Part shown: in pieces, positions 17,606 through 55,686 of the stretch
How positions within the stretch are numbered: position 1 is the stretch's first letter
How the letters are laid out: the number at the start of each line of letters is the position of its first letter
From: an uncultured Rhizobium sp.
GTDB lineage: Bacteria; Pseudomonadota; Alphaproteobacteria; Rickettsiales; UBA1997
Assembly (NCBI GenBank): GCA_964434225.1
Contig: CAYSUM010000003.1
Span: 1-62,134 of the forward strand
DNA length: 62,134 nt
Reading direction: 5' to 3'
Translations under genes and position numbers: made by a program
Notes under the pieces: generated by a model
The model's input: only the letters and a program-made list of their open reading frames with translations
What the model was told of the DNA's origin: nothing
Databases searched by the model: none

Positions 17606-18136
17606 TTAACTCTGCACTCTTTTTTTCTCTAGTTTCCGCGCCAAAGTTCGACGATGCATTCCCAATAATCGCGCTGCTTCGGAAACATTAAAGTCAACTT
17701 CTACCAAGACTTGGTGAATATATTCCCATTCGATATTTTTAATTGAAGTTTTTTTGGCGGAAGTTTTGTCGGTTAACGATTCACCATTAAAAGCTGCAAT
17801 TATTGCGTCAACATTTGCTGGTTTGGCCAAGTAGTAACAGGCTCCCAGCTTAATCGCCTCAATTGTTGTTGTGATGCTGGCGTAACCCGTGAGCATGACA
17901 ATTTTTATCGCCGCGTCAAATTGGTGTAAGGCTTTGATGCAATGCAAACCTGATTCGCTGTTTAATTTTAAGTCGATCACGGCGCAACTTGGGTGAAATT
18001 TTTTTAAGATTTCGGTCATTTCTTTGCAGCTGCGCGCCACTTCAACTCTAAAATCACGACGCGCAAAAGACCGTGCCAAACTTGTCGCCAAATCTTCGTC
18101 ATCTTCAACAATCAAAACTGATTTGTGGTTTTTCAT
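17606..18136 (-). CDS. regA: RegA/PrrA/ActR-type response regulator
   Basis: A REC domain (LIVEDDEDL; acceptor Asp in AVIDLKL) is followed by a C-terminal Fis-type HTH (NVSEAARLLGMHRRTLARKLEKK). Confidence 0.85.
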   Translation of the reverse strand: MKNHKSVLIVEDDEDLATSLARSFARRDFRVEVARSCKEMTEILKKFHPSCAVIDLKLNSESGLHCIKALHQFDAAIKIVMLTGYASITTTIEAIKLGACYYLAKPANVDAIIAAFNGESLTDKTSAKKTSIKNIEWEYIHQVLVEVDFNVSEAARLLGMHRRTLARKLEKKRVQS

Positions 18137-18906
18137 TTTTGCTTTTTCGCCTCTTCAAGCCTTTCGCTTCCTGACGCCAAAAGAATATTTGAAACCGCTT
18201 TTTTGCAGCGCTCAACTTGCGATTCCATTAATAAAATATCTTGGCGCAGATGAATTTCAGAATTTTTTAAATCATTAAGAACTACAGAAATTGTATTTAA
18301 TGGCGTTCCCAAATCATGCGCCGCAGCAGTTGCAAGCATCGCACTTCTTAAAAACTCTTGCTGTTCGCGTAAATTTTTTGACATTTGAGTAATAAAAATC
18401 AGCAGCAAAAACGCCGCAATAACATAGCTGAGCAGCATTCCGTGCAGATGCAAATTAAAGAAATTTTCGTCACCCAAATCTAATTCAATAAAATTGAAAC
18501 TAAGCCAAACGTAACAAGCGACAGTGATTGCAGCGATAATCCAAGCATAACTCGCGCGAAGTAAAATCGCGGCGATAATCACTTGCAGCAAAAATAGCGA
18601 GATAAAAGGATTAGAAATTCCACCACTGAAATAAAGCTGAGCCGTAAGCGCGGCGACATCAAAAACCAGTTCGAAAAATAGCGAACGATTGGTAATAATT
18701 TTTTGATATTGATAACGATAAAAACTAATCAGATTCAAAATCAGCAAAGCAGAAATCACCAAATACATTTGCTGCGGCAGCTCGATTTCCAAAAAATTTT
18801 CAGCAAAAAAAATCGCGATCATTTGTCCTGATATTGCGAGAACTCGCAACAATACCAGCTGCAGCAGATTTTTTTTATTAGCGTCGTAAAAATTATGATT
18901 AGTCAT
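18133..18906 (-). CDS. regB: RegB/PrrB/ActS-like sensor lacking the ATPase domain
   Basis: The membrane domain carries the GGxxNPF motif (GGISNPF). It is followed by the His box AAAHDLGTPLNTI and a conserved Cys (VERCKK). The ORF ends at 257 aa and overlaps the regA start by 4 nt. Confidence 0.7.
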   Translation of the reverse strand: MTNHNFYDANKKNLLQLVLLRVLAISGQMIAIFFAENFLEIELPQQMYLVISALLILNLISFYRYQYQKIITNRSLFFELVFDVAALTAQLYFSGGISNPFISLFLLQVIIAAILLRASYAWIIAAITVACYVWLSFNFIELDLGDENFFNLHLHGMLLSYVIAAFLLLIFITQMSKNLREQQEFLRSAMLATAAAHDLGTPLNTISVVLNDLKNSEIHLRQDILLMESQVERCKKAVSNILLASGSERLEEAKKQK

Positions 18907-29603: not shown

Positions 29604-31775
29604 TTAAGAAATCTCAATCTTCGACAAATCCGCAACTTCATCAAACAACTGACGGATTTTTGACAAGATCAAAAGGCGCACAACCCGAACATGTTCATCT
29701 TTATCGTTAATCACCAAATGATCAAAAAAATGTGTCAGCGGCGCTTCCAAAACATGCAATAATTTAAACGCTGCCACAAATTCACCTTTAGTAATCAGCT
29801 TTCTAAAATCAGTTTGAATCTGCTTCACGCGACGATACAAGACCTTCTCATATTTATTTTTCAGCGACAAAGGTAGAATTTTTCCGCCATATTTTTTGCC
29901 ATCTTTTTTCTCTTCGATCGATAAAATATTTGCCGATCTTTTGTAAAGTTCGATGATATTTCGATGCTGCGAATCGTTAACAAATGAATCTAAAAATCTG
30001 ATTTTTTTTGCCAGATATAAAATGTCGCAACTCTTGTGAATTTCAAGATTGGCGAGGTAAGTTTCAATCACGACATTGACGATATCGGCGCGCAACATTT
30101 CATTTTCTTTCAAATAAAATTTCAGCCTTTCAACGAAGAATTTTATGATTTCTTCTTCCAAATCTCTTTTAACTTTTTCGAATTTTACCGCATCGCTTTT
30201 TAAAAGATTTTTGACCAATTTTATTTGATAAGCCGCCAAAGATTTTTGTACTAAAATGCGAATTGGAAAGGCAATATTATGTTCAAAACCAATTCGGATA
30301 ATTCCAAGTGCGGCACGGCGCAAAGCGTATGGATCTTTTGAACTAGTTGGCTTTTCATCAGCCAAAAAGAAGCCAGCAATTGTATCGATTTTATCAGCAA
30401 TTGAAAGTGCAATTCCAAGCGCAGTTTTCGGCAATTCTGCGTTCAAACCTTGTGGCAAATAATGTTCGTAAATTGCAGCGACAATTTTAGGATTTTCGTT
30501 TTGTTGCTGCGCGTAAAAACTTCCCACTTTGCCTTGCAATTCTGGCAATTCGGCGACAGTTTTAGTAACCAAATCGGCCTTGCACAAATCGGCAGCGCGT
30601 TTCGACAAAGTTAAATCGCAATGTGGCACAAAAATTGAAAGGAATTTTGTTAGCTGATTTAAGCGCTGAGTTTTGTCGTAAAGTGAACCAAGTTTTTTAT
30701 GAAAAACAACTTGCTTCAAGCTGTCGAGCCTTTCAATTAAAGGCTTTTTAAGATCTTCGTTAATAAAAAATTGCGCATCATTTAAACGTGCGTGAACTAA
30801 TTTTTCGTTATCTTTAACAATTTTTTGTGCGTTATTTTCGGCAATTGGAGCGTTGGAAATAAAAATAAATTTTGACGCCAATTCGCCATCTTCATTTTTT
30901 AAGCACAGATATTTTTGATTTAATTTTAGAGTTAAAATCAAAACTTCGTCGGGCAATTCCATAAATTTATGATCAATCTCTGCAACCAGTGCCGTCGGCC
31001 ATTCGCAAAGTCCGGTGATTTCGTCAAACAACGCAGATTTTTCAACATCGTCGATTGTTGTAAGATCTAAATTTGCATTAATTTTTGCAACTTGGGATAA
31101 AATTTTTTGCCTTCTTTCTTGAGAATCAAGAATAACAAAATTTTCGGCGAGAATTTTTTTGTAATCATCCGCATCTTTAATTATCAACGCTTCAGACGAT
31201 TTTAGAAAATGTCCGTAAGTTTGATTATTTGATTTTAATCCAGCGAATTCTAGCGCGATAATTTCCGATCCAAAGAGTGCTAAAATATTTCTGATTGGTC
31301 GAATCCATTTAGGTTGCTCAACACTTCCCGCCACATCCCATCGCATTAATTTTGGCCAAGAATTGGTCATTTTTTGCAAAATTGCAGGCAAAGAATTTTT
31401 GATAATATCGGCAGTTTTAATTTCTAAAGCCTTGCTAACAAAGGCAAAACAACGTGCGCCGTTATTTTCAACTTGCTCTAATTGCGATTCATCTTGCAAT
31501 CCTGTTGATCTTAAAAATCCAGCAATCGCCTTTTTATCAGCGTCAATTTTTGGCCCAATTCTTTTGACGGGAGGAATTATTTGTACGGCTTGCAAACCGC
31601 TAACAATAAGGGTTAAACGACGCGGCGTGATGTAGGATTTTACCTGAGATGGATCGAGTTCTAAATTATTTTTTATAAAAATTTCCCACGCGATTTTGGC
31701 AAAATTTTCTGCGGCATTTTTTTGCATTACAGCCGGAATTTCTTCGCTGAGGATTTCGAGTAAAAAGTTAGTCAT
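29604..31775 (-). CDS. glyS: Glycine--tRNA ligase beta subunit
   Basis: The protein is 723 aa. The N-terminus MTNFLLEILSEEIPA and overall layout are typical of GlyS. Confidence 0.95.
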   Translation of the reverse strand: MTNFLLEILSEEIPAVMQKNAAENFAKIAWEIFIKNNLELDPSQVKSYITPRRLTLIVSGLQAVQIIPPVKRIGPKIDADKKAIAGFLRSTGLQDESQLEQVENNGARCFAFVSKALEIKTADIIKNSLPAILQKMTNSWPKLMRWDVAGSVEQPKWIRPIRNILALFGSEIIALEFAGLKSNNQTYGHFLKSSEALIIKDADDYKKILAENFVILDSQERRQKILSQVAKINANLDLTTIDDVEKSALFDEITGLCEWPTALVAEIDHKFMELPDEVLILTLKLNQKYLCLKNEDGELASKFIFISNAPIAENNAQKIVKDNEKLVHARLNDAQFFINEDLKKPLIERLDSLKQVVFHKKLGSLYDKTQRLNQLTKFLSIFVPHCDLTLSKRAADLCKADLVTKTVAELPELQGKVGSFYAQQQNENPKIVAAIYEHYLPQGLNAELPKTALGIALSIADKIDTIAGFFLADEKPTSSKDPYALRRAALGIIRIGFEHNIAFPIRILVQKSLAAYQIKLVKNLLKSDAVKFEKVKRDLEEEIIKFFVERLKFYLKENEMLRADIVNVVIETYLANLEIHKSCDILYLAKKIRFLDSFVNDSQHRNIIELYKRSANILSIEEKKDGKKYGGKILPLSLKNKYEKVLYRRVKQIQTDFRKLITKGEFVAAFKLLHVLEAPLTHFFDHLVINDKDEHVRVVRLLILSKIRQLFDEVADLSKIEIS

Positions 31776-35740: not shown

Positions 35741-36826
35741 TTATCTGGATTTTTTTACGATCATCTCAACAATGTCATGCAGCTTCTTTCCCACTTTTTC
35801 ACAGGTATAATTCGCAAAGAATTTTTCGCTGGCTTTTGCAGCTAATCTTCTGGCGAAATCTTCATCTTTTGCCAAACGCTCAACCGCATCGGCGATCAAT
35901 TTTGGCATTGCTTGTGCGTCTTCTCTTGGAACTTTTAAACCATCAACTCCGTCTTCAATAATCTCGTCTGGACCCCAGCTGTTACTGGTAATAATCGGCG
36001 TATTATAAAGCATAGCTTCAAGCAAAACGATGCCGAAAGTTTCGCCAAAAGATGGCAGAATAAAAATATCAATTGAGTCAAAAAATGCTTTTTTGTCAGA
36101 AGTCCAGCCCAGAATTTTAAAACTATTTTCAACGCCCAATTCTTTGGCCATGGAATTAAGTAATTCTTCCTGATGCCCCACCCCGCCAATCACATATTCG
36201 CATTCAATTCCGCGATCGCGTAAAATTGGAAGCGCTTGCACCATTTTATCAAAATATTTTTCTGGATAAAGTCGACCCAAAGATCCAATGCGCAAAGGCT
36301 TATGAAATGCTGGTTTGACGGGCGCGACAAAATCTGCCGGAACTTCTATCATATTTGGAATTACGAAAGCCGTTCCCGGAGCTTTTCCAGCTTTGATCAA
36401 TTCTTTACTAAAATAAGAATTCACCGTCAAAACGTAATCGGCTTTTAAAAATTTACGCGGATTAATGCCGTGATCGATGGCGATGATGGGAAATTTTTTA
36501 GGACAAAAAAGACGTGCCGCACGAGTGAAAAACATCGCTCTGCCCGAATGACAAATTGCGGCGTCGGGCGCAAATTTAAAAAGAGAAAAAGCAATTCGCA
36601 AAATTGAGAAAATATCAATTTGACTGAAAGCTGGAACTTCAAGAAATTTCGATCCAGTTTCCTGAACATCTTTTTTAAAAACCATGCCGGTTTTTGTGAT
36701 CGAAATAACTTCGCAACCGTTGAAAATTAAGTATTGAGCGTAATCAATAAAACATCTTTCAACGCCCAAAATTTGATTATCGTTTTTGGATTTTTTATGG
36801 TTAAACAGAATATTCGCGACCTTCAT
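35741..36826 (-). CDS. GT4-family (GT-B fold) glycosyltransferase
   Basis: The C-terminal half carries the GT4 pattern LPSFGETFGIVLLEAM...GVDG (E-x7-E). Confidence 0.8.
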   Translation of the reverse strand: MKVANILFNHKKSKNDNQILGVERCFIDYAQYLIFNGCEVISITKTGMVFKKDVQETGSKFLEVPAFSQIDIFSILRIAFSLFKFAPDAAICHSGRAMFFTRAARLFCPKKFPIIAIDHGINPRKFLKADYVLTVNSYFSKELIKAGKAPGTAFVIPNMIEVPADFVAPVKPAFHKPLRIGSLGRLYPEKYFDKMVQALPILRDRGIECEYVIGGVGHQEELLNSMAKELGVENSFKILGWTSDKKAFFDSIDIFILPSFGETFGIVLLEAMLYNTPIITSNSWGPDEIIEDGVDGLKVPREDAQAMPKLIADAVERLAKDEDFARRLAAKASEKFFANYTCEKVGKKLHDIVEMIVKKSR

Positions 36827-38226
36827 TAACGCTGCCTTTTGATTTGATTGGGAATATTTTTTCGATATTTATCGATCTCTTCCTTATCGGCATTGAAGCG
36901 CGCCAATTCTTTACCCGCAAGCTTTAATCCTGATGTCGCTTTTACTTTTGCCGGATTAATCGGCTTGCCTTTGTAAACCACTTCAAAATGTAAATGTGGT
37001 CCAGTTGAACGTCCCGTACTACCAACATAAGCAACCACATCACCTTGGCGAACATTTGATCCGACATGCAATTTTGCAACATATCTGCTGGCGTGGCCGT
37101 AAGCCGTTGAATAATCAGAGTTGTGCTGAATTTGTACGAAATTTCCGTAACCACCTTTTTTACCGTAATAGCTGATACGGCCACTTCCGGCGGCTAAAAT
37201 TGGCGTTCCCATTGCTGCCGCAAAATCAATACCTTGATGCATTTTTGAATAGCCAAGAATTGGATGACGACGAAGACCAAAGGCTGAAGAAACCCGCGCT
37301 CCGTTGATTGGAGTTCTAAGTAATGATTTTCTAATACTGTTTCCTTTGGCGTCAAAATATTCAACTTTGCCATCAGTTTTGTGCATATAAAAATCAATCG
37401 AACGATTTTGCAAAGTAAGTGACGAGAAAAGCACATTGCCGTCTTTCACTTTTTTACCGTCTTGCGTGTAAAAACTTTCCACCAACATTTCGAACTTGTC
37501 GCCATTGTGAATATCGCGCTGGAAATCGACGTCATAACTGTAAAGCTGAATCATATTCATCATCGAAGTTGGAGAAATTCCCGCCTCAACGCCATCCGAA
37601 AAGAAACCGTTTTTTAGAGTTCCGTAATATCTGGAAACGTAACGCAATAAATTAATTTTAATTTCTCTGGCGTCGTATCCACCAGCATTAGTGAGCGAAA
37701 CCACAATTTCTTGATCAGGAGTGGTATTAATTGAAATGCTATTGATGGTTACGCTTTTGCCAAGATTTTCGCCGCTATTTTTCTGAGATTGATCCAAGCC
37801 AACTTTGACACGATATTTAATCAAAACTTGATCATTTTTAGAAATATTTTTTGGATTATAAACTTTCTTCATCTCGTTTATAATTGTGGCCACATCAGCT
37901 TCTTGCGCACCCAAATTGATCAAAACTTTGGTCAAAGTGTCGCCTTGTTTAATGCGATAATCCAAAACTTGCTCTTCGTCAAAATCAAAACCAATGTCAG
38001 ATCCGGAAATATTAATACGAATTGGAGTGGTTTGGTTTTTGCGAATTGAATAATCGTGATAGTCGTCGATCAGGCTTTGAGCATAGTCAAAACCGTTAAT
38101 CAAAACGAAGCTAGTCAGAATAGAAATAACGATTGGCTTAAAGAGATTGTGCTCAATAATTTGATCAAAAAAATCTCGCAGGAAGATCTTATCGATTTTT
38201 TTGATTTTCTGGATTAGACTTTTCAA
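36826..38226 (-). CDS. M23-family peptidoglycan metalloendopeptidase (MepM/DipM-like)
   Basis: An N-terminal TM is followed by a LysM/OapA-like segment (YRIKQGDTLTKVL). The M23 motifs HQGIDFAA and GPHLHFEV are present. The TTG start at 38226 is uncertain. Confidence 0.85.
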   Translation of the reverse strand: MKSLIQKIKKIDKIFLRDFFDQIIEHNLFKPIVISILTSFVLINGFDYAQSLIDDYHDYSIRKNQTTPIRINISGSDIGFDFDEEQVLDYRIKQGDTLTKVLINLGAQEADVATIINEMKKVYNPKNISKNDQVLIKYRVKVGLDQSQKNSGENLGKSVTINSISINTTPDQEIVVSLTNAGGYDAREIKINLLRYVSRYYGTLKNGFFSDGVEAGISPTSMMNMIQLYSYDVDFQRDIHNGDKFEMLVESFYTQDGKKVKDGNVLFSSLTLQNRSIDFYMHKTDGKVEYFDAKGNSIRKSLLRTPINGARVSSAFGLRRHPILGYSKMHQGIDFAAAMGTPILAAGSGRISYYGKKGGYGNFVQIQHNSDYSTAYGHASRYVAKLHVGSNVRQGDVVAYVGSTGRSTGPHLHFEVVYKGKPINPAKVKATSGLKLAGKELARFNADKEEIDKYRKNIPNQIKRQR

Positions 38227-38346
38227 CAGTAAAAATGTTGGGATTTGTATGAGCTTGCGTCTGGTCAGGCGTTATGTCGTGCCACATTGCAATATGAATT
38301 TGTCGCGCATTAAATCGTCACTTTTTTAAATTAGAATATTTTTTTT

Positions 38347-38397: not shown

Positions 38398-38445
38398 GAA
38401 CGACCTCACAAACTCTTTCCATCAATCCAATTTTTTTAAGCACAA

Positions 38446-39576
38446 ATGCCTGCAAAAAAATCAAAAGCAAAAATTAAGCCTGCAAAAAAAGTCGCAAAAA
38501 ATAAACCAGCGAAAGTTGTAAAAAAAGCAACGGTAAAAAAAGCTGTGAAGCCTCTAAAAAAGCCAGCGAAGAAGATTGTAAAAAAAGTTGTGACTAAAAA
38601 AATTGTGAAGAAGCCTGCAAAAAAAATCGTTGTAAAACCAGTAAAAAAAGTTGCGGCAAAAGCCCCAAAAAAAGAAGTTAAAAAAACCGGTAAATTAGCA
38701 AAAACAAAGGACCTAAAATCTAAAGTTAAAGGATTGGACATCAAAACTTCTGCAAAAATTATCGCTAAAGCCAAAACCGCCAGCAAAATTAAACCTGAAG
38801 TTGAAAAAATTCCGGAGAAAAAAAGCGAAGCTCAAAAAAATCTTATCATTGTAAAAAAACTTTCTGAATCACGTAATAAAATCACTTTTAAGTCAGAAGA
38901 TTTCGCGGTTTATCCATCTCACGGCGTGGGCAAAATTGTTGATATCGAAAGAACTATGGTTTTGGGCCAAGATTTTAGCTGCTATTTGATGTATTTTGAA
39001 AAGGAAAAATTAACCATCAAAATTCCAGTAACTAGTTCAGAAAAAATCGGCTTAAGACATTTGGTTTCTAAGTCGCAAATGGAAGAAGTTTTCTCAATTT
39101 TAAGAAGCGGTGTTAAAAAATTAAAAGGCATGTGGAGTCGTCGCGCTCAGGAATATGAAACTAAAATCAATTCTGGCGACATCATGCTTTTAGCTGAAGT
39201 TTTACGCGATTTAACTCGCGACATTGAAGATGGCGACCGATCTTATTCTGAACGCATCATTTACGAAACTGCAGTTCATCGTTTAGCCGCTGAATATGCC
39301 GTAATCTATGGAATTGATTTCGAAGAAGCCAAAGACAAAATCATTTCAACCGCTAAAGATAAACTTGGCATCGAAGGCAAAATTAATCAGAAAGACGAGT
39401 TCGATGAATTCGATTATAAATCTGAAAAATCTGACGACGATGAAGACGAAGACGAAAATGAAGACGAAGAAGAAGAGGAAGACGATTTCGACTATGGCGG
39501 CGGTGGAAGCGATGAAGATTATGACGATGAAGATGACGACGACGATCGCCCAAAAAAGAAAAAGAGAAAAAAATAA
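38446..39576 (+). CDS. CarD/CdnL-family RNA-polymerase-binding regulator with Lys-rich N-terminal and acidic C-terminal extensions
   Basis: The core, about aa 147-310 (FAVYPSHGVGKIVDIE...RRAQEYETKINSGD...LAEVLRDL), is the CarD_CdnL_TRCF type. Residues 1-145 are K/A/P/V repeats, and residues from about 312 to 376 are D/E-rich and end in RPKKKKRKK. Confidence 0.85.
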   Translation: MPAKKSKAKIKPAKKVAKNKPAKVVKKATVKKAVKPLKKPAKKIVKKVVTKKIVKKPAKKIVVKPVKKVAAKAPKKEVKKTGKLAKTKDLKSKVKGLDIKTSAKIIAKAKTASKIKPEVEKIPEKKSEAQKNLIIVKKLSESRNKITFKSEDFAVYPSHGVGKIVDIERTMVLGQDFSCYLMYFEKEKLTIKIPVTSSEKIGLRHLVSKSQMEEVFSILRSGVKKLKGMWSRRAQEYETKINSGDIMLLAEVLRDLTRDIEDGDRSYSERIIYETAVHRLAAEYAVIYGIDFEEAKDKIISTAKDKLGIEGKINQKDEFDEFDYKSEKSDDDEDEDENEDEEEEEDDFDYGGGGSDEDYDDEDDDDDRPKKKKRKK

Positions 39577-40251
39577 ATGGAAGATTTCGCTCTGAAGCTA
39601 ATCGATATTCGAAAAAACTTCTCGCAAGCAGCGCAAGTTTTTGAAGTATTAAAAAGCGTCAATATAGAAATAAAAAAAGGCGAATTAGTTGCCCTTACCG
39701 GCCCTTCTGGCGCTGGAAAAACTACTTTACTTCAAATTGCAGGATTGCTTGATTCGTCAACTTCAGGGCAGATTTTTATCAACAGCATTGAAGCTTCAAA
39801 AGCCGATGATGAAACCCGCACCAAAATCCGGAAAAATCACATTGGTTTTGTTTATCAATTTCATCATTTATTACCGGAATTTTCGGCACTAGAAAATGTT
39901 GCTTTGCCGCTGCTGATTCAAGATAAAAGGAAGGAAGAAGCCTTTGCTGTCGCAAAACAAATTCTTAAAGAAGTTGGTCTTGAAGATCGCTTAAATCATA
40001 AGCCAGCGCAACTTTCGGGCGGACAACAACAAAGAGTTGCAATCGCTCGCGCCGTAATTTCAAAACCTTCGTTAATTTTAGCTGACGAACCTACTGGAAA
40101 TTTAGATTCAGCAATTTCAGAAAAGATTTTTGAGATTTTGCAAAATCTGGTTAAGAGCTACAAAATTGGATGTTTGATGGTCACGCATAATTTGGATTTA
40201 GCAAAAAAAGCTGATCGAATTATTGCAATTAAGGACGGGATAATTTCTTAG
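39577..40251 (+). CDS. lolD: Lipoprotein-releasing system ATP-binding protein
   Basis: Walker [10 protein letters not shown], signature LSGGQQQR and Walker [12 protein letters not shown] are present. The ATG directly abuts the carD-family stop. Confidence 0.8.
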
Positions 40252-53741: not shown

Positions 53742-54794
53742 CTATTCGCTCGCTAATTGAGCTTCTTCAGCAGTTTCTTTTGAGATTAATCCCCTTTCTA
53801 ATAATTCGTTGATCGAATCTTTCATTGTGCACATTCCAGCTTTTTTACCCAATTCCATGATTGAGTTAATTTGAGGAATTTTGTCTTCACGAATCAAATT
53901 GCGAATTGAAACATTGGCCAACATAACTTCGTAAGCTCCACATCTTCCTCCACCTTCTTTTTTAAGCAATCTTTGCGAAACTACAGCTTTGATTGAAGAA
54001 GAAAGCATGCTGCGTACGACCGATTTGTCTTCGGACGGAAATACGTCGATAATTCTGTTAATAGTTTGAGCAGCAGAGCTGGTGTGAAGCGTCGCCAATA
54101 CAAGATGTCCAGTTTCAGCGGCGGTTAAAGCCAATTGGATGGTTTCAACATCTCGCAACTCGCCAACCAAAATAACGTCTGGATCTTCACGAAGTGCGCT
54201 TTTTAAGGCACCAGCAAAAGATAATGTGCTGCTGCCAACTTCGCGCTGGTTGACTAAGGATTTTTTATTTTTATGAACGAATTCCACCGGATCTTCAACG
54301 GTGATAATATGAACTTCTTGATTGGTGTTAATGTGATCAATCAAAGCTGCCAGAGTTGTTGACTTACCGCTTCCCGTCGGCCCAACAACTAAAACTAAAC
54401 CTTTGTTAAGATTGGATAAAATACGAACCGCTTCAGGAGTATGTAGGTCTGAAAGCGTTTTAATGCCATTGGGAATTTCACGAAATGCCGCCGCTGGACC
54501 GTTAATAGTGCGAAAAGCGTTAACACGGAAACGTAAATCTTCGCCAACCTGAATGGCAAAATCTAATTCCAATCTTTCTTCATAAGTTTTTCTTTGATCT
54601 TCACTCATAATCGAATGAAGCATTTCGTAAACTTGAGTTTCTGTAAGAGGAGAAGTTCCTGGAATTGGAACCATATCACCATCAATTCGCACAATCGGAA
54701 CAGAACCTGTTGAAATATGAACGTCGGAACAGCCTTGTTTCTTGGCATAAGACAGAATTTTCTCAATGGCAAATGCCAAAATCTTTTCAATCAT
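53742..54794 (-). CDS. pilT: Type IV pilus retraction (twitching motility) ATPase
   Basis: It is collinear with PilT along its full length. Motifs present: GPTGSGKSTTLAA, ITVEDPVEFVH, ALREDPDVILVGELRD, ATLHTSSAAQTI. Confidence 0.9.
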   Translation of the reverse strand: MIEKILAFAIEKILSYAKKQGCSDVHISTGSVPIVRIDGDMVPIPGTSPLTETQVYEMLHSIMSEDQRKTYEERLELDFAIQVGEDLRFRVNAFRTINGPAAAFREIPNGIKTLSDLHTPEAVRILSNLNKGLVLVVGPTGSGKSTTLAALIDHINTNQEVHIITVEDPVEFVHKNKKSLVNQREVGSSTLSFAGALKSALREDPDVILVGELRDVETIQLALTAAETGHLVLATLHTSSAAQTINRIIDVFPSEDKSVVRSMLSSSIKAVVSQRLLKKEGGGRCGAYEVMLANVSIRNLIREDKIPQINSIMELGKKAGMCTMKDSINELLERGLISKETAEEAQLASE

Positions 54795-54810: not shown

Positions 54811-55686
54811 CTATTTGTTTCTAATAAATTCTACGCGCTTCCTTATTTGATCAAGCGGAATCGACTGATCGGATCCATTACTTTTTTTAATAACTTCCAA
54901 ATAAAGAGAAAAAGCATTGTCGTAATCAGCAGTTTTGTCGTAAATCACGGCTAAATTATATTTGTAATCAAGGCGATTTGGGTCGCAAGTAACCGCTCTT
55001 TTTAGAAGATCGATCGCTTGGCTATAGTTTTTTTCCTTGTCATAAGCAATTGCTGCTTGAGCAAGAATGTAAGAAGATTTTGGGTTTTCAGCAGTGAGCC
55101 TTGAAAGCAGATAAATCGCATCTTTCGGAGATTCATCGACCAGAATCGCCAGCAAATTTCCGACAATTTCCTCTTTATTTTCGGCATCACTCTTCAACAG
55201 TTCATAGTAAACAGTTTTAGCTTGTCGATTTTGGCCTAATTTTTGATAGACAACGCCCAAAGAAAATTTTGCGTAAAGATTTTCTGGTTCAGATTTTATA
55301 ACTTGTTTGTAAAGCTCGATTGAAACTTCGTACTGACCAATCAAGGCAGCGTTATAGGCCAATTTTTCTTTTTCTCTAACGTCAGAACTGCTGACTTTGG
55401 GATCGGCAACAATAATTTGAATATCAGAATTGGAATAATCTTTATCTTTGGAATCGCCGCCATGATTGATGACTAGATTATTTTTTTTTCTGGTTTCTTT
55501 GGGCTTATAAACATTGAGTTCTTGTCGCGCACCTTTGTCAAAAAGCAGAGTTTTTTCGATTTCCTTTACAACATCCGAAGTGGCAACGTAATTCTCAGCA
55601 AGTGCTGATTTTAAAGGATTTGTTAGCGCAATCGCCACAAAAAATAACAAAATATAAGGACGATTTTTGACAGATTTTACAATCAT
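54811..55686 (-). CDS. Secreted TPR-repeat protein
   Basis: It has a signal-like N-terminus and several TPR units (for example YNAALIGQYEVSIELYKQVIKSEP and AIAYDKEKNYSQAIDLLKRAV). Confidence 0.7.
   Translation of the reverse strand: MIVKSVKNRPYILLFFVAIALTNPLKSALAENYVATSDVVKEIEKTLLFDKGARQELNVYKPKETRKKNNLVINHGGDSKDKDYSNSDIQIIVADPKVSSSDVREKEKLAYNAALIGQYEVSIELYKQVIKSEPENLYAKFSLGVVYQKLGQNRQAKTVYYELLKSDAENKEEIVGNLLAILVDESPKDAIYLLSRLTAENPKSSYILAQAAIAYDKEKNYSQAIDLLKRAVTCDPNRLDYKYNLAVIYDKTADYDNAFSLYLEVIKKSNGSDQSIPLDQIRKRVEFIRNK

Follow-up and report, generated by a model that had tools for sequence, protein, structure and literature searches.

The window, i.e. the whole stretch of 62,134 nucleotides that was analysed, carries an extended cdnL gene at 38446..39576 on the forward strand (ATG start, 376 amino acids plus stop). 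An independent gene call on Logan contigs gave the same 376-residue product, and its layout of basic N-terminus, CarD/CdnL core and acidic tail is exactly that given in a preliminary description of the locus. The reported abutment on lolD also holds: the ATG of this ABC ATPase gene (39577..40251, forward strand; Pfam ABC_tran, 1e-34) directly follows the TAA of cdnL (39574-39576). Of the 80 loci listed for comparison, L001-L013 are clade loci and L014-L080 lie outside the clade. The cdnL-lolD adjacency is kept in 11 of the 13 clade loci, with a spacer of 0-14 nt in six of the genomes examined, and the two genes are probably co-transcribed. In the 219-nt intergenic region upstream of cdnL, a scan for sigma-70 promoters and terminators yielded no promoter-like site (counts were below shuffle expectation), and no recognisable Shine-Dalgarno sequence precedes the ATG at 38446. 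A 25-nt AT-rich element, CTTTTTTAAATTAGAATATTTTTTT (38321..38345, forward strand), is located 101 nt before the ATG. It is unique in the window even at three mismatches (0 expected) and is present as an exact copy in L001, L002, L003, L005 and L007, where the flanking intergenic DNA has diverged; it is a candidate UP-element-like or regulator site. RNA genes were not found anywhere in the window with Rfam (gathering thresholds) and ARAGORN.

The CarD/CdnL core proposed in the preliminary description was recovered as two Pfam domains, both on the forward strand. The RNAP-interacting domain, or RID (CarD_TRCF_RID, PF02559, Tudor-like beta fold), spans residues 148-205 (38887..39060; E 4.8e-10, 39.8 bits against a cut-off of 23), and the helical CarD_C domain (PF21095) residues 214-299 (39085..39342; E 5.3e-21). 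AlphaFold2 (AF2), run with a 34-sequence alignment, predicts a confident two-domain core with disordered tails; the beta strands of the RID (residues 153-194) have a pLDDT of 88-92. In the same alignment the YPSHG motif and K192 (equivalent to R47 of M. tuberculosis CarD) are invariant in the RID, as are W230, R232, R233, Y267 and R270 in CarD_C, which carries the Trp wedge and the basic-hydrophobic patch. The latter five align with W90, R92, R93, Y127 and R130 of Caulobacter CdnL and with W85, R87 and R88 of M. tuberculosis CarD. All published functional CdnL residues are invariant in the core and map to residues of experimentally shown importance. The best solved relative of the core is M. 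xanthus CdnL (2LWJ, E 5e-24), followed by M. tuberculosis CarD (E 2e-17), and identity to homologues of other Rickettsiales, Micavibrio and SAR116 is 40-50%. In contrast, N-terminal fragments of myxobacterial CarD match only weakly (2LQK, E 0.023; 2LT1, E 0.21), and the core does not have an N-terminal domain of the CarG-binding CarDNt type. Judged from its sequence, this is a genuine CarD/CdnL core, of the CdnL rather than the CarD type, and the gene encodes a CdnL descended from alphaproteobacterial CdnLs. The core is near neutral (pI 6.4); the whole protein has a pI of 9.4 and a net charge of +21.

The N-terminal extension (residues 1-144) contains 53 K, 1 R, 2 D, 6 E, 18 A, 10 P and 17 V, which corresponds to a net charge of +46 and a pI of 10.75. 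Its first part (residues 1-100, 38446..38745, forward strand) is a K/A/P/V-rich, H1-like block (K 42%, A 13%, P 8%, V 15%; net charge +39) that starts with MPAKK and holds 6-7 PxKK motifs. M1 and K5 are conserved in at least 90% of the 34 aligned sequences. The block is predicted to be disordered (AF2 pLDDT below 50, no secondary structure). The remainder is a basic linker into the core (residues 101-144, 38746..38877, forward strand; pLDDT below 50) with the conserved segments KTSAKIIAKAK and EKKSEAQKNLIIVKKLSESRNK. Among relatives, the length of the extension varies from 71 to 220 residues. The resemblance to proteins of the H1, Hc1/Hc2 and AlgP type, put forward in the preliminary description, holds for composition, namely K/A/P-rich disorder with PxKK-type repeats, but does not extend to family membership. 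With Pfam, no family matched either isolated tail at E ≤ 10, and neither a linker-histone globular domain nor the HC2 family model was detected in the extension; one relative (P0043) gave a sub-threshold HC2 match (E 8e-7, 29.7 bits against a cut-off of 40). The H1 likeness of the extension, as read from its sequence, is therefore compositional only, with no evidence of homology. Fusion with a separate upstream H1-like gene was considered and rejected after a scan of the 2 kb that precede cdnL in L014-L080: K-rich in-frame segments turned up solely as cdnL's own N-terminal extensions, and the other matches were spurious arginine-rich frames in GC-rich DNA or unrelated long open reading frames.

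Behind the core lies a poly-acidic tail, predicted to be disordered (residues 313-367, 39382..39546, forward strand), in which 64% of the 55 residues are D or E (21 D, 14 E, 3 K; net charge −32) and a D-D-D-Y motif is conserved. It is built of GACGAA-type tandem codon repeats as detected by TRF, which found such arrays in the acidic tail and none in the K-rich part. The junction of core and tail is marked by the short motif QKDEFDEFD (residues 315-323, 39388..39414, forward strand), identified from the alignment; Q315, D317, F319, D320 and F322 are invariant in the 34 sequences, and the pattern recurs in 113 of 120 relatives. The motif has a pLDDT of 50-70 and does not dock confidently, and for neither tail did the AF2 model built on the 34 sequences show contacts or order with confidence. 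The protein closes with a basic patch, RPKKKKRKK (residues 368-376, 39547..39573, forward strand; charge +8), a fourth conserved module that had not been quoted in the preliminary description. Of the 120 relatives, 114 finish with P-[K/R]n, and P369 is at least 90% conserved; the basic end is absent from some clade members (L010, L013, P0027 and P0105). Reading the patch as an AT-hook was rejected: a GRP/RGRP core is absent from the window protein and from all 120 relatives, 23 of which have only [KR]G[KR].

The architecture is not a one-off but turned out to be clade-wide. It is found in all 120 best 90%-identity clusters, each with the acidic tail, and in all 13 clade genome loci, and by these sequences it appears universal in the Ca. 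Gamibacteraceae-like Rickettsiales clade; the closest genome belongs to Gamibacteraceae, sister to the host-associated Deianiraea. Nor is the basic N-terminal extension as unusual as had been supposed, since 54 of the 150 nearest 50%-identity CdnL representatives across Alphaproteobacteria carry one. The stated size of alphaproteobacterial CdnLs, 160-190 residues, fits about half of the nearest relatives and not the rest. A phylogeny of the core, suggested in the preliminary description, separates the two ends of the protein: the acidic tail is monophyletic and the N-terminal extension is scattered (33 Fitch changes, compared to 44 for shuffles). The H1-like extension on its own is, as far as these sequences tell, common in Alphaproteobacteria, and the acidic tail plus basic end is clade-specific. 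We infer a single origin of the latter in the Gamibacteraceae-like clade, because the acidic tail is monophyletic on the core tree.

If the extensions resulted from misannotation, translation would begin at an internal codon and yield an ordinary CdnL of at most ~230 residues, and the lack of a recognisable Shine-Dalgarno sequence and of a sigma-70-like promoter in our simple scan would fit such a reading. The open reading frame itself leaves hardly any room for it. A stop codon lies two codons upstream of the ATG, and further in-frame starts occur only at residues 34, 49, 54 and 97 and then at residues 161 and 171, within the RID, where initiation would destroy this domain. The internal start near 38880 that had been named as a possible refutation was rejected, as there is no in-frame ATG, GTG or TTG from residue 97 to residue 161. 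Moreover, every clade locus keeps the frame open and K-rich, the protein begins with a conserved MPAKK, purifying selection acts on the sequence, and the C-terminal tail would persist whichever start codon were used; we consider an annotation artefact highly improbable. The probability that 144 codons stay open by chance at the base composition of the window is ~1e-4. Relative to L001, dN/dS was ~0.17 for the N-terminal extension, 0.05 for the C-terminal tail and 0.03 for the core, values that are rough because dS is saturated and the alignment of low-complexity sequence is uncertain. Since no start codon skips the extensions, all 120 best matches share them, their motifs are conserved and dN/dS is low, both extensions are, on comparative grounds, translated, conserved and under selection, and predicted to be disordered.

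Selection has also to be weighed against neutral drift of the tails. In an AT-rich, reduced genome, slippage in runs of A-rich and GA-rich codons could have added low-complexity sequence to an otherwise ordinary CdnL. The local GC content of 31-42%, the 14 runs of at least seven A in the gene, the preference for AAA over AAG (66 to 13) and the GACGAA-type repeats of the acidic tail are all compatible with slippage, as are the variable length and the scattered distribution of the N-terminal extension. However, such tracts occur in no other open reading frame of the window: among 63 (≥100 residues), a 40-residue stretch that holds 15 or more K/R or 16 or more D/E is found in extended cdnL alone. 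The charge segregation of the protein (kappa 0.35) exceeds that in 200 shuffles (0.17±0.02, maximum 0.25). The sign of the charge, the order of the blocks, MPAKK, QKDEFDEFD, DDDY and the terminal P-[K/R]n are conserved despite saturated synonymous sites, dN/dS is well below 1, and the acidic tail has been retained ever since its single origin. Neutral expansion is thus quite unlikely.

The C-terminal tail also bears on the turnover of the protein, a point overlooked in the preliminary description. An AA or VA end is found in more than 80% of alphaproteobacterial CdnLs, and proteolysis depends on the AA (PMC5324124); with AA changed to DD, CdnL escapes degradation by ClpXP and starvation adaptation is impaired (PMC11034885). 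Nearly all of L014-L080 end in -AA, and 68 of the 150 top representatives end in AA or VA. The window protein ends in ...DDDDDRPKKKKRKK, and neither AA nor VA is found among the C-termini listed for the 120 clade relatives. It would appear from this pattern that the acidic tail plus basic end has replaced the ancestral Ala-Ala ClpXP degron, so that starvation-linked, degron-dependent clearance of CdnL has probably been lost or rewired in the clade.

CdnL/CarD is a global RNAP-bound factor that is essential or near-essential in mycobacteria, myxobacteria and Caulobacter, and the alphaproteobacterial CdnL is needed at many promoters without a consensus −10 element. CdnL binds RNAP and stabilises open promoter complexes at sigma-70 promoters; in the window protein, the RID is predicted to dock on the β1 lobe of RNAP and the Trp wedge and basic-hydrophobic patch to be placed at the DNA fork. 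Conservation indicates that the folded core keeps everything needed for this. On balance, we favour as the function of the window protein that of an RNAP-bound open-complex stabiliser which has gained non-specific DNA tethering and lost degron control. By its composition, the 144-residue lysine-rich block would confer non-specific electrostatic affinity for AT-rich DNA, so that CdnL would be enriched at the nucleoid or at DNA upstream of promoters; the HMGA/H1-like domain of myxobacterial CarD may, by analogy, do the same job for its CdnL-like module. The acidic tail with its basic end would have arisen once, in place of the degron. This polyanionic tail probably serves as a counter-ion within the molecule or as a DNA mimic, and would damp the polycationic N-terminal tail, the basic patch of CarD_C, or both, until RNAP and DNA are engaged. 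The invariant QKDEFDEFD may point to one specific partner contact.

The charge pattern can be read differently. The protein might be mainly a nucleoid-associated, H1-like chromatin protein that compacts or silences DNA and uses its core to tether RNAP, or a block-polyampholyte scaffold whose oppositely charged tails join different molecules into transcription hubs or condensates. The former posits a reduced genome that is short of other nucleoid proteins. The overall pI and net charge, the extreme segregation of charge with both tails disordered, the H1/Hc2-like composition and the single sub-threshold HC2 match agree with these possibilities. Yet every residue that contacts RNAP or the promoter fork is invariant, which speaks for canonical CdnL activity as the function under selection, and we regard a primarily structural role as unlikely. 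Similarly tentative, and rather doubtful, is the idea that the clade's CdnL is a block-polyampholyte, chromatin-style factor in which a tail-tail electrostatic switch or RNAP hubs replace control by ClpXP, with QKDEFDEFD as a latch. The positive and negative tails would then interact within or between molecules in a salt- or DNA-sensitive manner, and multivalent RNAP hubs could form on the AT-rich nucleoid. If true, bacteria would have invented an architectural transcription factor of the HMG/H1-like kind a second time and independently.

An acidic tract followed by a basic end is also a typical layout of eukaryotic nuclear proteins. The protein could in principle be a secreted effector (nucleomodulin) of a Rickettsiales lineage with a type IV secretion system, in which PKKKKRKK serves as eukaryotic nuclear localisation signal (NLS) and the acidic tract mimics chromatin proteins. 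The terminal patch does resemble a monopartite NLS, the C-terminal order is that of such nuclear proteins, and the closest genome belongs to a group with a host-associated sister. A role in the host is nevertheless extremely unlikely, given that the core is that of an intact RNAP-binding housekeeping factor whose functional residues do not vary, that the genomic context is that of a conserved housekeeping gene tightly coupled to lolD, that the 80 loci listed contained no second cdnL from any of the 13 clade assemblies, and that the four clade members mentioned above have no basic end at all. The favoured function, a CdnL with added DNA tethering, would make this protein an example of rewired transcription control in genome-reduced, possibly host-associated bacteria, and would supply naturally occurring variants with which to study the tuning of an RNAP-bound factor by disordered, charged tails.

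To our knowledge, published work takes CdnL to be small, to stand alone and to lack a DNA-binding domain, and regards the acidic-plus-basic fusion of myxobacterial CarD as unique; in the searchable literature no description was found of an extended CdnL or of the charged-tail architecture of the clade. With standalone proteins of ~160-200 residues that have no extra DNA-binding region (CdnL of Caulobacter crescentus and M. xanthus, CarD of M. tuberculosis and T. thermophilus), the window protein shares the two-domain RID and CarD_C core, including the residues of the Trp wedge and basic-hydrophobic patch. It is, however, more than twice as long, owing to the 144-residue polycationic disordered N-terminal region and the 64-residue acidic-then-basic tail. 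A second group, the N-extended alphaproteobacterial CdnLs (e.g. L018, L025, L030, L052 and L065), has a K/A/P/V-rich extension of 100-260 residues before the same core but keeps the ancestral -AA/-VA C-terminus and has no acidic tail. Their extensions are more A/P/T-rich, cannot be aligned with that of the window protein and are scattered on the core tree. The existence of these proteins, which are apparently undescribed, implies that the N-terminal tail does not require the acidic one. Lysine-rich, DNA-binding-like extensions of CdnL are common in Alphaproteobacteria and, it seems, have gone unnoticed.

A polyanionic disordered tail together with a polycationic DNA-binding region is the textbook layout for electrostatic autoinhibition or chaperoning of DNA binding. 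The acidic tails of HMGB1 and HMGA and the pair of H1 and prothymosin-alpha likewise combine the two charges in one system; with neither homology nor an HMG box or H1 globular domain here (Pfam), the analogy to them is a functional one only. The closest parallel in bacteria is myxobacterial CarD. In M. xanthus it consists of the CdnL-like CarDNt, an acidic region and four RGRP AT-hooks, and in Anaeromyxobacter dehalogenans CarD has a histone-H1-like C-terminal domain (PMC2919716, PMC4374960). Both CarD and the window protein thus fuse a CdnL-like RNAP-binding module to disordered acidic and basic segments, and the K/A/P-rich, H1-like composition of our basic block has a precedent in the A. dehalogenans protein. 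The order of modules had been described as different from that of CarD; this is correct for the H1-like block, which is N-terminal here and C-terminal in CarD, but the C-terminal half follows the CarD order of core, acidic and basic. The C-terminal basic part is only ~9 residues long, and an acidic segment next to a basic patch but lacking RGRP repeats does not make an HMGA-like domain. Unlike CarD, which is an accessory ECF-sigma co-factor, the window protein seems to represent the housekeeping copy. As the core is of the CdnL type, and the lineage is Rickettsiales while CarD and CarG have been reported from Cystobacterineae only, the sequence comparisons indicate that the likeness to CarD is convergent and of separate origin, in line with the independent assembly proposed in the preliminary description. 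Overall, one aquatic Rickettsiales clade would seem to have rebuilt a CarD-like acidic/basic architecture on the housekeeping CdnL and, in doing so, to have given up the conserved Ala-Ala degron, through which CdnL levels respond to starvation.

The extended cdnL gene was recovered in the ORF listing of the window as an ATG-initiated frame at 38446..39576 (+) encoding 376 aa, with the same position and quoted sequence as in the preliminary description. A profile check of the CarD/CdnL core, suggested there, located both of its parts in Pfam, each well over the gathering score: CarD_TRCF_RID, the RNAP-interacting domain (RID), at aa 148–205 (E 4.8e-10) and CarD_C, the C-terminal helical domain, at aa 214–299 (E 5.3e-21). 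The sole NCBIfam match was a sub-threshold one to mfd. The core (aa 145–312) has a net charge of about 0 (pI 6.4). It is preceded by an N-extension (aa 1–144; 53 K, 1 R and 8 D/E; net +46, pI 10.75) and followed by an acidic tail (aa 313–367; 21 D, 14 E and 3 K; net −32) and a terminal patch, RPKKKKRKK (aa 368–376; net +8). The K/R or D/E density was unmatched by any other window ORF of at least 100 aa (63 tested), and the charge segregation (kappa 0.35) lay above that of 200/200 shuffles (mean 0.17, maximum 0.25). There are also 14 tracts of 7 or more consecutive A in the gene (longest 8; AAA:AAG = 66:13), on which polymerase or ribosome could slip; none of the relatives showed a frameshifted copy. 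A phenylalanine-rich antisense ORF of 116 aa at 38436..38786 (−) was rejected as a mirror artefact of the AAA/AAG lysine codons.

The extensions are genuine parts of the protein; an annotation artefact was excluded in practice. An in-frame stop lies two codons 5′ of the ATG. In-frame ATG, GTG or TTG codons ahead of the core occur only at aa 34, 49, 54 and 97, the next ones (aa 161 and 171) being within the RID, so that at least one third of the N-extension is unavoidable; the C-tail is unavoidable by any start choice. An internal start at about 38880, proposed earlier as a way in which the extensions could be lost, does not exist, as there is no in-frame start between aa 97 and 161. Independent gene calling on two Logan contigs gave the same 376-aa product. 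Among the 120 best database matches (core identity 75–100%), all have a basic N-extension (71–220 aa, median K+R 36%, net +12 to +69) and an acidic C-extension (34–65 aa, median D+E 59%). In an alignment of 34 sequences, the MPAKK N-terminus is nearly invariant, and the linker segments KTSAKIIAKAK and EKKSEAQKNLIIVKK..E.R.K, a DDDY within the acidic run and P369 followed by 5–8 K/R at the C-terminus are conserved. QKDEFDEFD, directly after the core, is invariant (Q315, D317, F319, D320, F322); the pattern Q[KR]DxF(x)DxF[DE] was found in 113/120 relatives and a terminal P-[K/R]n in 114/120. Relative to the closest genome (L001), dN/dS (Nei-Gojobori) was lowest in the core (0.03), slightly higher in the tail (0.05) and highest in the N-extension (0.17), ratios that are rough because dS is saturated (>1.2); the 70% amino-acid identity of the N-extension despite saturated synonymous sites indicates constraint. 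Neutral low-complexity expansion would fit the A-runs, the codon repeats and the variable length of the tails, but we consider it quite unlikely given the gene specificity, the conserved motifs and the purifying selection. AlphaFold2, run with the same alignment, modeled the core with confidence (strands at 153–194 and five helices at 209–311, pLDDT about 75–92) and gave no structure for aa 1–143 and 321–376 (pLDDT <50).

The best solved relative of the core is M. xanthus CdnL (2LWJ, E 5e-24), followed by Streptomyces and mycobacterial CarD (about 2e-17 to 2e-18) and Thermus CarD (1e-8), whereas N-terminal fragments of M. xanthus CarD matched weakly (2LQK, E 0.023; 2LT1, E 0.21). W230, R232, R233, Y267, R270 and K192 are all invariant in the 34-protein alignment; the residues match Caulobacter W90, R92, R93, Y127 and R130 and M. 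tuberculosis W85, R87, R88 and R47, whose importance has been shown experimentally. Identity to homologues of other Rickettsiales, Micavibrio, SAR116 and Holosporaceae is 40–50%. The ranking of structural relatives and the invariant functional residues indicate that the core is a functional CdnL, of alphaproteobacterial descent, and not a CarD orthologue. That the protein is a secreted effector bearing a nuclear localization signal is very unlikely, since the residues that contact RNAP are invariant and the operon is a housekeeping one.

Thirteen genome loci with 68–94% core identity (L001–L013) belong to uncultured freshwater or aquatic MAGs labelled Rickettsiales or Alphaproteobacteria, the closest being UBA2645, a member of Ca. 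Gamibacteraceae. This family has been described as aquatic and metabolically reduced, lacking flagella and ATP/ADP translocase, and sister to Deianiraea. The gene order glycosyltransferase and M23 peptidase (−), cdnL and lolD (+), PEGA lipoprotein, lpxL and lpxK (−) is common to L001–L012 and is not found at more distant loci. As described before, lolD abuts cdnL, its ATG at 39577 directly following the TAA at 39574–39576; the spacer is 0–14 nt in six genomes, which suggests co-transcription. The remainder of the window is ordinary housekeeping (glyQ, glyS, dnaB, tsaD, rseP, sdhAB, mnmG, PPDK, xseA and amino-acid permeases), and no RNA genes were found in it. glyQ (5647–6543, +) and glyS (29604–31775, −), for the alpha and beta subunits of glycyl-tRNA synthetase, are not adjacent: 23 kb separates them, and they lie on opposite strands. 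A 1488-aa ORF with a TTG start (57590–62056, −) adjoins mnmG and has no Pfam match at E ≤ 1e-6. A T2SSE-family (PilT/VirB11-like) ATPase (53742–54794, −) adjoining a TPR protein (54811–55686, −) and a PilS-like 6TM-domain protein (18133–18906, −) may bear on the pilus or secretion capacity of a lineage described as without flagella and Tad system.

The start of the divergent, Csd3-like M23 peptidase (36826–38226, −) is ambiguous: the longest ORF begins with TTG and encodes 466 aa, and with the independent Logan-contig call of 425 aa the intergenic region would measure about 342 nt instead of 219 nt. An AT-rich 25-nt element, CTTTTTTAAAT[T/A/G]AGAATATTTTTTT, is found at 38321–38345 (+), 101 nt 5′ of the cdnL ATG, and is unique in the window even allowing three mismatches. 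It is exactly kept in five relatives with diverged intergenic flanks (L001, 3485–3509; L002, 3322–3346; L003, 3383–3407; L005, 1554–1578; L007, 3490–3514), and lies 91–184 nt upstream of the long cdnL across the window and these relatives. A plausible promoter, TTGC(N)C-N16-TAT(N)(R)T, is present 3′ of it in L003, L004, L005 and L007; the element would then sit between roughly −40 and −70, in a location resembling that of an UP element. It could serve as an UP element or as a site for a regulator, or else be autoregulatory.

The cdnL ORF was taken from all 80 loci of the homologue search. L014–L080 end nearly uniformly in -AA, in agreement with the report that AA/VA is the C-terminus of >80% of alphaproteobacterial CdnLs and drives proteolysis (PMC5324124). 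L001–L013 have the acidic tail instead, with the basic end in most and not in L010 and L013. K/A/P/V/T-rich N-extensions of 97–260 aa also occur on -AA-ended CdnLs outside the clade, from other Rickettsiales (L016, L018), Micavibrio-like genomes (L025, L030, L065), a Rhodospirillaceae-labelled MAG (L052) and others (L078, L079). Database proteins from outside the clade that combine a K/A/P-rich N-extension of 100–310 aa with -AA include P0141, P0156, P0171, P0212 and P0219. With the core alone as query, HMMER was run exhaustively against 1.84 billion representatives (50% identity) and yielded 1592 proteins at E ≤ 1e-10. In the best 150 of these, N-extensions of 60 aa or more are present in 75 (54 of them strongly basic) and an AA/VA end in 68; acidic C-extensions (30 aa or longer, with at least 40% D/E) were confined to the 8 representatives whose identity to the query is 61% or higher, and to one borderline protein that retains an -EAA terminus. 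The core phylogeny that had been suggested was built by neighbour-joining from 144 cores and placed the acidic-tail proteins in a single clade. The basic N-extension required 33 Fitch changes (shuffled trait: mean 44, minimum 36), a scatter that points to repeated gain and loss on this noisy single-domain tree. The N-extended, -AA-ended CdnLs show that the two tails can be separated as modules; the acidic one is the later, clade-specific addition. No separate K-rich gene was found 5′ of short cdnL genes, and there is thus no sign of an origin by gene fusion. The basic terminal patch is missing in the clade variants L010 (267 aa), L013 (436 aa), P0027, P0082, P0095, P0105 and P0125–P0127, whose C-terminus is D/E-rich or ends in ...KSARG; the N-extension of L013 and P0125 is also D/E/N-rich (64 K/R, 27 D/E). 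These variants could represent intermediates of the architecture or divergent forms of it.

The protein thus combines an intact CdnL core with two conserved, oppositely charged disordered tails, the acidic one in place of the -AA end. [quoted passage not shown] By autoinhibition or DNA mimicry, the polyanionic tail could moderate either the polycationic N-tail or the C-terminal domain's basic patch, and the invariant aromatic-acidic QKDEFDEFD would mark a specific contact. Loss of -AA would end degron-dependent clearance by ClpXP, which degrades CdnL and not CdnL-DD; with the stabilised variant, adaptation to starvation is poor (PMC11034885). That the protein's role is mainly architectural, or lies in forming condensates, is in our opinion unlikely.

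CdnL homologues have been described as standalone proteins without a DNA-binding domain, and CarD as exclusive to myxobacteria. The possibility, raised in the preliminary description, that the present architecture is already widespread and described in its clade was borne out for the first part only: the 120 best matches all have it, but full-text searches found no description of extended CdnLs. The searchable CdnL literature likewise yielded no mention of N-extended, -AA-ended alphaproteobacterial CdnLs; H1-like N-extensions form a wider, apparently unremarked pattern. The extended CdnL is clearly real, conserved and testable, yet it elaborates a known principle. Like CarD, it joins a CdnL module with acidic and basic disordered regions; unlike CarD, it has a CdnL-type core, lacks the RGRP hooks and comes from outside the CarD lineage. 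Every sequence criterion identifies it as a CdnL, but it differs from the alphaproteobacterial CdnLs in exceeding standalone size and in lacking the AA degron. The independent assembly proposed in the preliminary description agrees with the match of the core to CdnL (5e-24) over the CarD fragments (E 0.023 and 0.21), and the CarD-like architecture is best read as a convergent re-invention by a Rickettsiales clade, built on its housekeeping CdnL.
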